Virus record (IMG/VR): IMGVR_UViG_2698536428_000008
Source: a virus
Lineage: Duplodnaviria; Heunggongvirae; Uroviricota; Caudoviricetes
Direction: 5' to 3' (one strand)
DNA: 12,745 nucleotides
This document shows, piece after piece, positions 181 to 11,521 of this stretch. The stretch's first letter is position 1, and every line of letters begins with the position of its first letter. The notes beneath the pieces were generated by a model that did not search any database, had not been told where the DNA came from, and was given only the letters and a program-made list of their open reading frames with translations. A program made the position numbers and the translations under genes.

Positions 181-625
181 GTTGGCAGCCTCCTCAGTGT
201 GGTTAAGATAACCGCCACGCAAAAGGCTAATTTCGCTGGTGGCGGACTGTACAGGGTTAGCCTTACCGGACACTGAAGAAACCGGCGCGGATTGCTCCGC
301 CCCCGTACAGCCCACCATTGATAAGGTGTGACTATGCGGCACAAAAAAACACGCGGGGCGCGTGCTGTGCGCTTCAGTTGTTTTCAGGAGGCTAATCCCG
401 ACACCCGTTTTATGAGGTGCGCGGGAATCATAGCCATTTTTGCTGGTGGCGATCAACTGGTTTTTTACACCCGCTTTATTCAGGTTGTGTGAGTCCCGCC
501 CTTGCGGGTGTGTGGTATGATTTCTCATAGCTACCTCGATACTTTCGCTATCGTTGGTGGTTAGAAGCCCTGCGAGTGGTAACGACACTTGCGGGGCTTT
601 GCATTTATGCACCTTGATAACCTCA

Positions 626-8106: not shown

Positions 8107-8568
8107 CTATCTGCACTGCTCATTAATATACTTCTGGGTTCCTTCCAGTTGTTTTTGCATAGTGATCAGCCTCTCTCTGAGGGTGAAATAATCCCGTTCA
8201 GCGGTGTCTGCCAGTCGGGGGGAGGCTGCATTATCCACGCCGGAGGCGGTGGTGGCTTCACGCACTGACTGACAGACTGCTTTGATGTGCAACCGACGAC
8301 GACCAGCGGCAACATCATCACGCAGAGCATCATTTTCAGCTTTCGCATCAGCTAACTCCTTCGTGTATTTTGCATCGAGCGCAGCAACATCACGCTGACG
8401 CATCTGCATGTCAGTAATTGCCGCGTTCGCCAGCTTCAGTTCTCTGGCATTTTTGTCGCGCTGGGCTTTGTAGGTAATGGCGTTATCACGGTAATGATTA
8501 ACAGCCCATGACAGGCAGACGATGATGCAGATAACCAGAGCGGAGATAATCGCGGTTACTCTGTTCAT
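8107..8568 (-). CDS. Rz: Rz i-spanin (153 aa)
   Basis: ATG at 8568 overlaps the endolysin stop (ATGA); the track ORF extends 4 codons further from a [63 protein letters not shown]... matches lambda Rz (N-terminal TMD, periplasmic coiled coil). Confidence 0.93.
8166..8348 (-). CDS. Rz1: Rz1 o-spanin lipoprotein (60 aa), fully nested in the +1 frame of Rz
   Basis: Track [63 protein letters not shown]: lipobox VVGC and a proline-rich stretch, embedded in Rz as in lambda. Confidence 0.9.
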
Positions 8569-9062
8569 TGCTGACCCCACAAACAGATTTCACGCTCAAT
8601 CTCACGACGAGTCATGAGACCTTTCCATTGCTTACCGCCAGCATATGTCCAGCGACGTAGCTGATCACATGCGCCTTTGATATCGCCCTGGTTTATTTTG
8701 CGAAGAAGCGTCGATGTTCTGAAATTGCCAGCACCCACGTTGTAAACGAATGAGTAAAGAGCGCCGCGCATTGTTTCCGGTATATCGACTTTGATGTACG
8801 GGTTAATTTGTCTGGCGACCGTGGCAAGGTCTTTATTCAGGAGGGCTTTGCATTCTGCTTTGGTATACGTTTTACCGAGCATGATGTCTTTTCCTGTATG
8901 CCCGTGACATACAGTCCATACACCAACAATATCTTTGTATGGTATGTAGCTGACACCTTCCAGACCATCGTTACCACTTGGGCCAGTGATTAACACTGAT
9001 GCTATAGCAATTGCTCCGCCACCAATAGCAGCAGCAACGGCTTTTCGTAATGATGGAGGCAT
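8565..9062 (-). CDS. R: SAR endolysin (phage 21 R / DLP12 RrrD-type lysozyme), 165 aa
   Basis: Track ORF. N-terminal Gly/Ala-rich signal-anchor-release segment ([20 protein letters not shown]) followed by a T4-lysozyme-like E-8-D-5-T catalytic spacing ([17 protein letters not shown]). Start ATG overlaps the holin stop (TAATG). Confidence 0.95.
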
Positions 9063-9277
9063 TATTCACCTCTCGCAGCCTTGCGCTTATCTTCTTTAAT
9101 CTTGAAATAAAGGTTTGTCAGGTACGTCAGCAGGCCAAATACCAGGCTACCCAGCACACCTATTGCTGCCCACTGTGAGGGCGTGACTTTATCGAGCAGC
9201 TGTAAAAACCAGTAACCGGCACTACCTGCTGAGGTGCCATAGGCGACACCCGTTGTTAACTTATCCATGGATTTCAT
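9062..9277 (-). CDS. S: Class II pinholin (phage 21 S / EssD-type) with dual-start motif, 71 aa
   Basis: ATG at 9277 with GAGGTGGGG upstream; the track ORF 9062..9322 starts further upstream from a [74 protein letters not shown] has two TMDs and the M-K-x-M dual-start pattern. Confidence 0.9.
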
Positions 9278-9395
9278 AACCCCACCTCGCAGACAAAGCG
9301 GGTGTAAATTGAGGGAATACAACGTATCGCAAAAAAGCAGAAACGTAACAGACTCGGAGTCAGTGAATAACTCAGGTATTGGGTTATCAGCTAAT

Positions 9396-9440
9396 ATCGA
9401 GACTCAAAAAATGGAAAAACCCGCTCGACGGCGGGTTTAA
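9396..9440 (-). terminator. Strong intrinsic terminator on the minus strand about 120 bp upstream of the holin gene; candidate tR'-like late-leader terminator
   Basis: 8-bp stem AAACCCGC / GCGGGTTT (9417-9424 / 9431-9438) with a 6-nt loop; on the minus strand it is followed by UUUUUCCAUUUUUUG (complement of ~9398-9416). Read directly; the tR' role is inferred by analogy with lambda. Confidence 0.5.
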
Positions 9441-9866
9441 GCTGTGTGACGAAGTAACCACTCTTAACAGCATAACCAATTTTTTACGTACGTAAACCAC
9501 AAAATGATATTTGCGAGAATGCTACCGAGTATTGAAAACACCACTACAAACACATAAGCAAATCTCAACAAATAACCAACAAATAATTTCCAGTGTTATT
9601 TTTAGCCGATTTAAATTGAACCTTCAAATTACAGAGCACTTATAAATAACAGCCGTTAATATAAATTGGCTAATAGATTTATTTTTATTCAGCCAAGATC
9701 CATGAATAGGATTCGATAGAAAAAAGTTCAGATAAAAATAGAGATCTACTTCACAAATCAAACGAGAAACCAAAACTTACATCTTGAAATAATCACATTG
9801 ATTAGATGAATATTTATCGCGCAGTGACATCATTTTTTAATAATAGTTCAAAAAAAAGGGCTCACG

Positions 9867-10949
9867 ATGAAAAAATTAACAGTGGCAATTTCTGCTGTAG
9901 CTGCATCAGTACTGATGGCGATGTCTGCTCAGGCAGCTGAAATTTATAATAAAGACAGTAACAAGCTGGATCTATATGGGAAAGTTAATGCCAAGCACTA
10001 CTTCTCCTCTAATGATGCAGATGATGGTGATACTACTTATGCCCGTCTTGGCTTCAAAGGTGAAACCCAAATCAACGATCAACTGACTGGTTTCGGTCAG
10101 TGGGAATATGAATTCAAAGGCAACCGCGCTGAATCTCAAGGCTCCTCCAAAGACAAAACCCGTCTTGCATTTGCAGGCCTGAAATTCGGGGACTACGGCT
10201 CAATCGATTACGGCCGTAACTACGGTGTAGCATATGACATCGGTGCGTGGACTGACGTTCTGCCAGAATTCGGTGGCGATACCTGGACCCAAACAGATGT
10301 GTTCATGACTGGTCGCACCACTGGTGTTGCAACTTATCGTAACAACGACTTCTTTGGTCTGGTTGATGGTCTGAACTTTGCTGCTCAGTATCAGGGTAAA
10401 AATGACCGCACTGACGTAACTGAAGCTAATGGTGATGGTTTCGGTTTCTCCACTACTTATGAGTATGAAGGATTCGGTGTAGGTGCAACCTATGCTAAAT
10501 CTGACCGCACTAATAATCAGGTTATCTACGGTAACAACAGCCTGAATGCATCTGGTCAAAATGCTGAAGTATGGGCAGCTGGTCTGAAATATGATGCGAA
10601 CAACATCTATCTGGCTACCACCTATTCTGAAACCCAGAACATGACTGTTTTTGGTAATAACCATATTGCCAACAAAGCACAAAACTTCGAAGTAGTTGCA
10701 CAATATCAGTTCGACTTCGGTCTGCGTCCATCCGTTGCTTACCTGCAATCTAAAGGAAAAGACTTGGGTGCGTGGGGTGATCAGGACCTGGTTGAATATA
10801 TTGATGTAGGTGCAACCTATTACTTCAACAAAAATATGTCCACTTTTGTTGATTACAAAATCAACCTGATTGATAAGAGCGATTTCACGAAAGCATCTGG
10901 CGTTGCTACCGATGATATCGTTGCTGTAGGTATGGTTTACCAGTTCTAA
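9867..10949 (+). CDS. nmpC: General-diffusion outer-membrane porin, OmpC/OmpF/NmpC family (360 aa), apparently intact
   Basis: Track ORF; signal peptide [23 protein letters not shown] then [24 protein letters not shown]; C-terminal ...VGMVYQF with the terminal Phe typical of porins. Position between Q and the lysis cassette on the opposite strand matches nmpC of DLP12-like prophages. Confidence 0.93.
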
Positions 10950-11085
10950 TTTGATTACTAAAAGATATGTTGCGGGAGGCTTTGCCTCCCCAACATATAA
11001 GTGGCTCCCTCAAGCCACTTCCTTTAGGAGCACAACCTTGCTTCTAACTATATAAACCTTCTGTTATATATTACCCTTTATTTTT

Positions 11086-11120
11086 GGGGGCGTTGCAACG
11101 CCCCATTTTTAATAATTTTT
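11086..11120 (+). terminator. Candidate intrinsic terminator closing the porin transcript
   Basis: Perfect palindrome GGGGCGTTGCAACGCCCC (11087-11104) followed by ATTTTTAATAATTTTT. Two further hairpins lie between the porin stop and this site (10963-10998 and 10999-11019). Confidence 0.5.
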
Positions 11121-11137
11121 AGTAAACAATTGGCATA

Positions 11138-11521
11138 TTAATTAGAGTTATTAACAACGATATCCATCTCTAACCGGATATCTAATGCCATTAACATCCC
11201 TTCAATTATGCCCTCAGCCTTCTGTAACCTTTTCCCGATATAACCATCAGAGCAGCAATGCTTACCTGCCAGTGACATGAATGTCATACCGACTACATAA
11301 TAATCTACTAATAAATCGTGCAAATCGCTGTTGTTCTTTTTCAGACGGGCCATGCACCCGCAAATAATCATCGCGTCATCGTCACAACATTGCGGGCGAG
11401 ATTTTACTTTTGAAGTAATTAATCCCTTAAAACCGGCGGCAATGGACGACCAGGTCACATCTTCATGATTATTAGCCGCCCACGCTCCCCAACGCTCAAG
11501 AACCATCTGAATATCACGCAT
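11138..11521 (-). CDS. Q: Late-gene antitermination protein Q (phage 21/82, QuuD-type), 127 aa
   Basis: ATG at 11521 with GGAG upstream; the track ORF extends 5 codons further from a [65 protein letters not shown]... matches DLP12 QuuD as I recall it; Cys-rich zinc-binding region present. Confidence 0.9.

Follow-up and report, generated by a model that had tools for sequence, protein, structure and literature searches.

A putative Q-dependent late promoter and terminator beyond an antisense porin gene in a DLP12/PA-2-type lambdoid prophage

Where does late transcription begin in a lambdoid prophage whose antiterminator gene, Q, is separated from the lysis genes by a porin gene on the opposite strand? 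The locus that raises this question lies in IMG/VR record IMGVR_UViG_2698536428_000008, a stretch of 12,745 nt that was analyzed as a whole (here, the window). Its late-regulation and lysis region is encoded on the minus strand in the order RusA, YbcO, then Q, then holin-lysozyme-Rz. A first-pass annotation of the window had proposed a late promoter (pR') at a TTGAAG-17-TAAAAA pair and a leader RNA of ~190 nt, the length of lambda 6S RNA, ending at an intrinsic terminator (tR') in front of the holin gene. It had also proposed that the late promoter either was displaced from Q by the porin gene or gave rise to transcripts that cross it. Here, we present evidence that the promoter is indeed displaced, and that it lies ~130 nt downstream of the TTGAAG pair. 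We conclude, with a probability of roughly 0.8, that minus-strand positions 9496-9401 contain pR' and tR' and constitute the unit for Q-dependent late transcription in a lambdoid prophage of the DLP12/PA-2 type.

Results

A module homologous to the late promoter region of 933W and VT2-Sakai

The proposed unit has the following parts.

9491 to 9496, minus strand: pR' -35 element TTTACG, aligned with the annotated pR' of 933W and VT2-Sakai
9480 to 9493, minus strand: palindrome ACGTACGT (-31 to -24) and A6 tract (-23 to -18), the predicted Q-binding element (QBE), from its pairing with Q clusters
9469 to 9474, minus strand: pR' -10 element TATGCT, with key bases conserved in 43 upstream variants
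9462 ± 2 nt, minus strand: predicted transcription start, the A of TAAGAG, 7 nt after the -10 element, from homology to Sp5
9446 to 9466, minus strand: conserved start-site and initial-transcribed box TAAGAGTGGTTACTTCGTCAC, common to all Q clusters and present in one copy in the window
9401 to 9438, minus strand: tR'-like intrinsic terminator, with stem 9438-9431/9424-9417 (+25 to +46), then UUUUUCCAUUUUUU

Minus-strand positions 9500-9410 aligned with the segment of 933W and VT2-Sakai that is annotated as "pR' putative late promoter," "qut," and "possible rho-independent terminator." Homology extends from -37 to approximately +50 and includes the -35 element TTTACG, a 16-nt spacer, an identical TAAGAGTGGTTAC, and the same hairpin stem; the -10 element is TATGCT in the window and TATCAT in VT2-Sakai.

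Window minus strand, -37 to ~+50: GTTTACG-TACGTAAAAAATTGGT-TATGCT-GT-TAAGAGTGGTTACTTCGTCACACAGCTT-AAACCCGCCGTCGAGCGGGTTT-TT
VT2-Sakai, -37 to ~+50: GTTTACG-ATCGTAAAAATCTGCA-TATCAT-GA-TAAGAGTGGTTACATTGCCACGCAGTCG-AACCCGCCGATGCGCGGGTT-TTTTT

The alignment stopped just past the first hairpin, with no homology to the 74-nt StxS region of Sakai (+185 to +258). The signature of the module occurs once in the window, at 9454-9496, with the promoter TTTACG-16-TATGCT at 9496-9469; approximately 363 phage records carry the module. BLAST divided the spacer between the porin and holin genes into two parts: segment 9480-9720 was found only in porin-carrying phages (36 records), whereas segment 9283-9492 was also found in Shiga toxin (Stx) phages, SfII, SfIV, and other phages that lack the porin. 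The Q protein of the window is 78% identical to that of VT2-Sakai/933W over 126 amino acids, up to the motif RLEMD. Lambda_2E9 was rejected as a comparator: its Q is 87.6% identical at the DNA level, but its downstream promoter and terminator differ. The terminator of that phage (L003, 2880-3020) resembles the second (StxS) terminator of Sakai and is followed by an antisense lipocalin gene.

The transcription start was transferred from Sp5 of strain Sakai, for which differential RNA sequencing placed the pR' start 258 nt upstream of the tR' 3' end determined by Term-seq (Sy et al. 2020; PMC7547250). That distance, measured upstream from the U-tract of the second terminator in the annotation, ends at the A of TAAGAG, with a tolerance of ±2 nt. 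The homologous base is position 9462 of the window, which corresponds to position 577,229 of NC_000913.3. With +1 at 9462, the hairpin would occupy +25 to +46 and the U-tract (9416-9401) would extend to +62, for an RNA of ~47 to 60 nt. Hence, the predicted leader is ~50 nt long rather than ~190 nt. A leader of this size is normal for the Q21 family, since the terminator of phage 21 spans +3 to +50.

The first 20 nt of the predicted late transcript, 9442-9462(-), coincide with GAGTGGTTACTTCGTCACACAG, on which the GenBank record for PA-2 (L002, 1730-1750) annotates a CRP-binding site. In most relatives, the same bases could fold into a small hairpin at the 5' end, GUGG(U)...(G)CCAC.

Comparison with known late promoters

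The 933W/Sp5 (VT2-Sakai) region resembles the window in having a palindrome, ACG(A/T)(T/A)CGT, with an A-tract and a TAnnnT -10 element. In Stx phages, however, Q extends at its 3' end into the promoter; the tR' that has been mapped is the second terminator, at +258, and tRNAs and stx lie beyond it. In the window, by contrast, Q has no C-terminal tail, and the first hairpin stands alone as terminator, with the holin gene directly after it. DLP12 (qsr') of K-12, PA-2, and 434B share the Q-porin-S-R-Rz order with the window (quuD-nmpC-essD-rrrD-rzpD in DLP12, a segment of which is carried by 434B), and their pR'-tR' module is identical to that of the window. The porin genes are annotated in PA-2 (lc) and DLP12 (nmpC); none of the three records has an annotated late promoter.

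Alignment with the pR' regions of phages 21 and 82 had been suggested earlier as a way to find the QBE. The architecture of phage 21 (OL657228 annotation; PDB 6P18 and 6JNX) proved to be the same, with a Q of the same Pfam family and an S21-type lysis cassette downstream, but the window has no sequence similarity to the Q21 QBE, and 933W was the informative comparator. The phage 21 record places the QBE ATTGAGCA/AATGAGCA in the promoter spacer, the start at 2042 (locus coordinates), and the pause element TAAGCTG at +2 to +8. The phage 21 QBE is a tandem direct repeat (TGAGCA at -21 and -13), whereas the element in the window is a palindrome with an A-tract at -31 to -18. The phage 21 pause element has no clear counterpart in the window, the promoter sequences are dissimilar, and Q of the window matches the Q21 structures only weakly (E = 7.6e-7). 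The pR'-6S RNA-tR' region of lambda follows the same logic, with a constitutive promoter, a short terminated RNA, and Q-dependent read-through (PMC7547250, PMC6606751), although lambda Q is unrelated to Q of the window in sequence and fold, and the lambda leader is ~194 nt long.

A -10 signature and a palindrome that pairs with the type of Q

We scanned IMG/VR with TAAGAGTGGTTACNTNGNCAC; with phage records included, 127 loci carried the motif. The 34 nt upstream of the box fell into 42 variants, all in a single register, and extension to 40 nt gave 43 unique variants. T at -12 was present in 40 of the 43, T at -7 in 42, and A at -11, G at -6, and A at -23 (the head of the A-tract) in all of them. 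This base pattern, within an otherwise variable region, appears to mark a sigma70 -10 element maintained by selection.

Palindromes of 8 to 11 bp with an A-tract were found at -31 to -18 across related loci. The palindrome (9493-9486 in the window, which has one exact copy of ACGTACGT) is always in a fixed register and overlaps the -35 element. We clustered the upstream Q proteins at 70% identity, which gave eight clusters covering 102 loci.

Q cluster 0 (window and 933W type), 53 loci: ACGTACGT, ACGATCGT, or ACAATCGT (ACGWWCGT/ACAATCGT)
Q cluster 1, 23 loci: GCGGTCCGC-type
Q cluster 2, 16 loci: GCGTACGC
Q cluster 3, 5 loci: GTTATAAC
Q cluster 4, 2 loci: TCGTTACGA
Q clusters 5 and 6, 1 locus each: GGAATTCC
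Q cluster 7, 1 locus: GCGCACGC

Across the 102 loci, every Q cluster had a single palindrome class, with two clusters sharing GGAATTCC, and the pairing held at Q-to-promoter gaps of 5 to 2,565 nt. For the Q cluster of the window, the cognate palindrome occupied the distal position in each of the 42 loci of the porin type. Predicted recognition helices also varied by Q cluster and were most alike where the palindrome half-sites were alike; clusters 1 and 2, for example, have in common S[ED]xxIRxE and GCG...CGC half-sites. Segments downstream of the hairpin reassort freely among Q clusters. The pairing is good indirect evidence that the palindrome and A-tract (9493-9480, -31 to -18) are the QBE, in which case 9496-9469 would be a Q-responsive promoter.

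The terminator upstream of the holin gene

The first-pass annotation had described a strong minus-strand terminator ~120 bp upstream of the holin gene, and our terminator scan bore this out. The hairpin AAACCCGCCGTCGAGCGGGTTT, at 9438-9417(-), is followed by TTCCATTTTTT and ends ~124 nt before the holin ATG at 9277. Its arms, AAACCCGC and GCGGGTTT, enclose the loop CGTCGA and form an 8-bp G+C-rich stem with a free energy of -12.0 kcal/mol. The plus strand has no T-run at the hairpin, so the terminator would work for the minus strand only. In 933W and Sakai, the homologous hairpin is the first terminator annotated downstream of pR'. In the window it is intact and is the only terminator candidate before the holin gene; a scan between the hairpin and the ATG at 9277 detected no second terminator-like site. 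Changes to the hairpin among relatives are mostly one-sided or are replacements of the whole hairpin. Divergent relatives have unrelated hairpin and U-tract sequences at the same place, which argues for function.

Weighing the evidence for the module

Several observations weigh against the assignment of 9496-9401 as pR' plus tR'. (i) The match of pR' to the promoter consensus is weak (8 of 12 positions) and equals the score of the TTGAAG/TAAAAA pair; hence, support for pR' comes from homology and conservation rather than from match quality. (ii) The search pattern used to collect loci fixes the initial transcribed box, so conservation of the box is not independent evidence, and the pairing of Q with palindromes could stem in part from physical linkage rather than selection. 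(iii) We found no convincing sigma-dependent pause element: the candidate TAC(T/A)T(C/T) at +7 to +12 reads TACATT, a fair -10-like sequence, in 933W, but TACTTC, without the final T, in the window. (iv) In 17 of 43 porin-type sequences, including PA-2 (L002), L009, and L019, the 3' arm of the hairpin has GCTGG in place of GCGGG (window 9419-9423(-)), and this G-to-T change weakens the hairpin from -12.0 to -6.2 kcal/mol. (v) The reported Sakai 3' end is at the second terminator, +258, and not at the homologous first hairpin (PMC7547250), which leaves the efficiency of the window hairpin as a terminator a prediction. (vi) In the literature available, transcript data covered neither the window nor K-12 DLP12; a text search for a start site of K-12 at 577,227-577,231 returned nothing relevant, and literature searches on essDp, QDLP12, and quuD yielded no usable description. 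(vii) The published lysis promoter of DLP12 (essDp, RpoE dependent) is apparently near 9818 and not at 9462.

The GCTGG variant favors an alternative CAGCUU/GAGCUG stem. The TAAGAG box, which resembles TAAGCT of phage 21, was considered as a pause element and rejected: it spans -4 to +2 and so cannot serve as one.

Homology, anatomy, and conservation of the module come directly from the comparisons described above, while the start site comes from Sp5 and the logic of promoter, QBE, pause, and terminator from phage 21. For this exact sequence, we infer Q binding to the palindrome, the pause element, the efficiency of the terminator, and the start site; a sigma-dependent pause element would be expected within the box at 9446-9466. 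In the mechanism we propose, sigma70 RNA polymerase would start at approximately A9462 from TTTACG-16-TATGCT. Without Q, transcripts would stop at the hairpin and U-tract (+25 to +57), leaving an RNA of ~50 nt, and the holin, endolysin, spanin, and downstream late genes would stay off. Q, made from a gene 1.64 kb upstream on the same strand, would bind ACGTACGT and the A-tract in the promoter spacer and would be loaded onto polymerase during a pause in the conserved initial transcribed region; the Q-modified polymerase would then pass the terminator into the lysis cassette. The same hairpin would also stop minus-strand transcripts begun further upstream.

Alternative late promoters

Two other promoter-like sequences lie upstream of the module.

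9598 to 9627, minus strand: promoter-like pair TTGAAG-17-TAAAAA of the first-pass annotation, with an 8/12 consensus match
9823 to 9849, minus strand: sigmaE-like motif GAACTA-16-TCACT, probably the published DLP12 essDp with +1 near 9818, read from the sequence and from primer mapping

If the late promoter were TTGAAG-17-TAAAAA(T) at 9627-9598(-), Q would act there, and the terminated leader would be ~185 nt long, the size of lambda 6S RNA. The hexamers and spacing are present in the window (TTGAAG at 9627-9622, a 17-nt spacer, TAAAAA at 9604-9599(-)), the -10-like TAAAAAT is conserved among relatives, and a transcript from this site would stop at the same hairpin. The pair, however, lacks the T at -7 unless an 18-nt spacer and AAAAAT are used, and a consensus promoter scan did not report it. 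Sites of 8/12 quality occur ~5 times per kb per strand in the window, and the spacer at 9323-9866 (34% G+C) has 6 of them, compared with 7.2 ± 2.6 in shuffled sequences, so that a match of this kind is at chance frequency. We aligned the window with 42 porin-carrying loci (43 sequences). The TTGAAG -35 was replaced by TTCTTT, TTCGGC, TTCGAT, or other variants in ~18 of the 43 and lies in the most variable part of the spacer; 9500-9410 was almost invariant in the same alignment. Segment 9480-9720 is also missing from Stx phages, PhiR55, and others in which both the Q type and the terminator are the same, contains no element specific to the Q type, and lies inside the upstream regulatory region of the porin gene. 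We judge the pair to be probably a chance match within that region, and a role as the late promoter to be very unlikely. An essDp-type RpoE (sigmaE) promoter near the porin start codon (GAACTA-16-TCACT, 9849-9823(-)), acting as the main driver of lysis with Q cooperating and with a ~540-nt leader that includes the hairpin, deserves more weight but is still improbable. RpoE is said, in the abstract of Rueggeberg et al. 2015, to drive essDp in vitro, with Q reportedly acting together with RpoE. PMC7918800, in which a "regulatory region from -121 to +650" was cloned, refers to Rueggeberg et al. 2013 and 2015 on the control exerted by Q and RpoE. Its primer Pdlp12Fw (-121) maps to 9939-9920(-), which puts +1 at ~9818, ~355 nt further upstream than the pR' start. 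This position is an indirect reconstruction from that primer and the numbering of the paper, whose reverse primer has no match in the window within 3 mismatches; the sigmaE-like motif is exactly at the reconstructed position and is conserved in relatives. That conservation is equally explained by the 5' untranslated region and ribosome-binding site of the porin gene on the other strand. Moreover, the motif lies within the porin cargo, and relatives in which Q and the pR' module are the same lack it; no sequence at 9849-9818 varies in step with Q, in contrast to the palindrome at 9493-9486. For known Q proteins, the site of loading is a sigma70-dependent pause beside the QBE (PMC6606751; bioRxiv 10.1101/651190), and transcripts from essDp would reach the same terminator without passing a Q-loading site. 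An essDp-type promoter could provide additional, stress-responsive transcription that ends at tR'.

The canonical lambdoid layout would put pR' directly after Q (~11137-10950), as in lambda; Q-modified polymerase would then cross the porin gene in antisense, and the hairpin at 9438-9417 would be one more terminator on its way. A weak TTGCAA-19-TAATAT can be read at ~11095-11065(-). We rejected this position, for which there is neither space nor a module signature: the gap between the Q stop codon and the T-run of the porin terminator (11087-11112) is just 23 to 25 nt, the stretch has no similarity to the pR' module, whose only signature in the window is the distal one, and the cognate palindrome is distal in 42 of 42 porin-type loci. 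This is the least probable of the three alternatives. The module at 9496-9401 remains the preferred reading.

A ~12-nt hypervariable patch lies at 9612-9627(-) of the window, in the porin upstream region, where it coincides with the TTGAAG -35. It is flanked by invariant ATAATT and AATTTAAA, in relatives that are otherwise 85 to 100% identical.

Gene layout and the porin cassette

The neighboring genes and transcribed regions are as follows.

11138 to 11521, minus strand: Q antiterminator gene of the QuuD/Q933W type, 127 amino acids (Pfam PF06530, E = 4e-53)
10950 to 11112, plus strand: 3' untranslated region of the porin gene, with hairpins and a plus-strand terminator (terminator scan and sequence)
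9867 to 10949, plus strand: Lc/NmpC-type porin gene, antisense between Q and pR' (Pfam Porin_1, E = 3e-153)
9278 to 9400, minus strand: 5' untranslated leader of the holin gene (from sequence)
9062 to 9277, minus strand: S21-type dual-start holin/antiholin gene, 71 amino acids, the first late gene (Pfam PF04971, E = 3.5e-35)
8565 to 9062, minus strand: endolysin (lysozyme) gene (Pfam PF00959)
8107 to 8580, minus strand: Rz spanin gene (Pfam PF03245)

The holin homologue is annotated in 434B and, as essD, in K-12. Long minus-strand open reading frames continue past holin, lysozyme, and Rz (9277-8107). The porin is 90 to 100% identical in 41 IMG/VR loci of the same layout. From the Q stop at 11138 to the pR' -35 at 9496 is 1,641 nt (~1.64 kb), close to the ~1.5 kb given by the first-pass annotation, with the antisense porin gene between them as it had described. 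The porin cassette (~11152-9499) consists of the 3' untranslated region with its terminator, the coding sequence, and the upstream region, and it occupies exactly the interval between the end of Q and the pR' -35; it appears to be cargo that entered downstream of the Q stop codon and upstream of the -35 element. Because the cassette lies upstream of the late start, late transcription would not cross the porin gene, which counts against the other arrangement proposed earlier; the porin sits where late transcription would never collide with it.

The plus-strand terminator of the porin gene, GGGGCGTTGCAACGCCCC plus a T-run at 11087-11112, abuts the Q stop codon. The 3' untranslated region as a whole has three hairpins and this strong terminator against the Q stop, and Rfam had no match there. 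Region 10950-11112 probably corresponds to the position of ipeX, an RNA that reportedly maps downstream of nmpC/lc in DLP12 and PA-2 and represses OmpC/OmpF (Castillo-Keller et al. 2006).

Discussion

As a regulatory element, the pR'/tR' cassette of the window is ordinary and, like others of the 933W/DLP12 Q type, very widespread; the 245-nt feature span is present, at a coverage of at least 80%, in 2,400 of 5,426 complete E. coli genomes. Our assignment would give the position of the Q-responsive late promoter for a prophage module that is among the commonest in E. coli, that of K-12 DLP12, PA-2, and 434B, in which the late promoter is unannotated in the database records compared and the published DLP12 promoter is apparently elsewhere.

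The comparison also predicts Q-type-specific palindromic binding sites. In many relatives, the promoter is displaced from Q by 0.6 to 2.6 kb, which indicates that the adjacency of Q and promoter is typical of the Q21 family but not required. Provided that a cognate Q and palindrome function together even when far apart, the Q stop and the pR' -35 would bound a slot for cargo. We therefore put forward a broader proposal, tentatively and at slightly less than even odds: that the Q933W/DLP12 branch of the Q21 family recognizes a Q-cluster-specific dyad (an 8- to 11-bp palindrome and A-tract), that the Q-pR' junction is a general slot for antisense cargo, and that essDp is not the Q-loading promoter. 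If this is true, palindrome recognition would imply a loading geometry unlike that of Q21, which uses tandem direct repeats.

The Q-to-pR' gap (0.6 to 2.6 kb) of other loci (L096, L018, L106, L027, L067, and L112, among others) holds other cargo, mostly in antisense. This includes KwaB of the Kiwa defense system with a membrane partner (PADLOC, E = 2e-126), a PDC-S20 KAP-type NTPase (E = 2e-176), lipoproteins, and membrane proteins. From these contents, the junction looks like a recurrent slot for cargo or defense genes, and it may be a recurrent landing site for accessory genes more generally. Q of the window (11138-11160(-)) ends within 7 residues of RLEMD, whereas Q of 933W/Sakai (annotated as 157 amino acids) continues for ~24 more residues, across the pR' -35; this puts the point of cargo insertion inside what is the C-terminal tail of the Stx phage Q.

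At the gathering threshold, Rfam reported nothing in 9300-9700. Its only matches in the window lie side by side near the window start, at the far end from the late promoter: a C4 antisense RNA at 235-322(-) (75 bits) and an isrK Hfq-binding RNA at 344-420(-) (62 bits).

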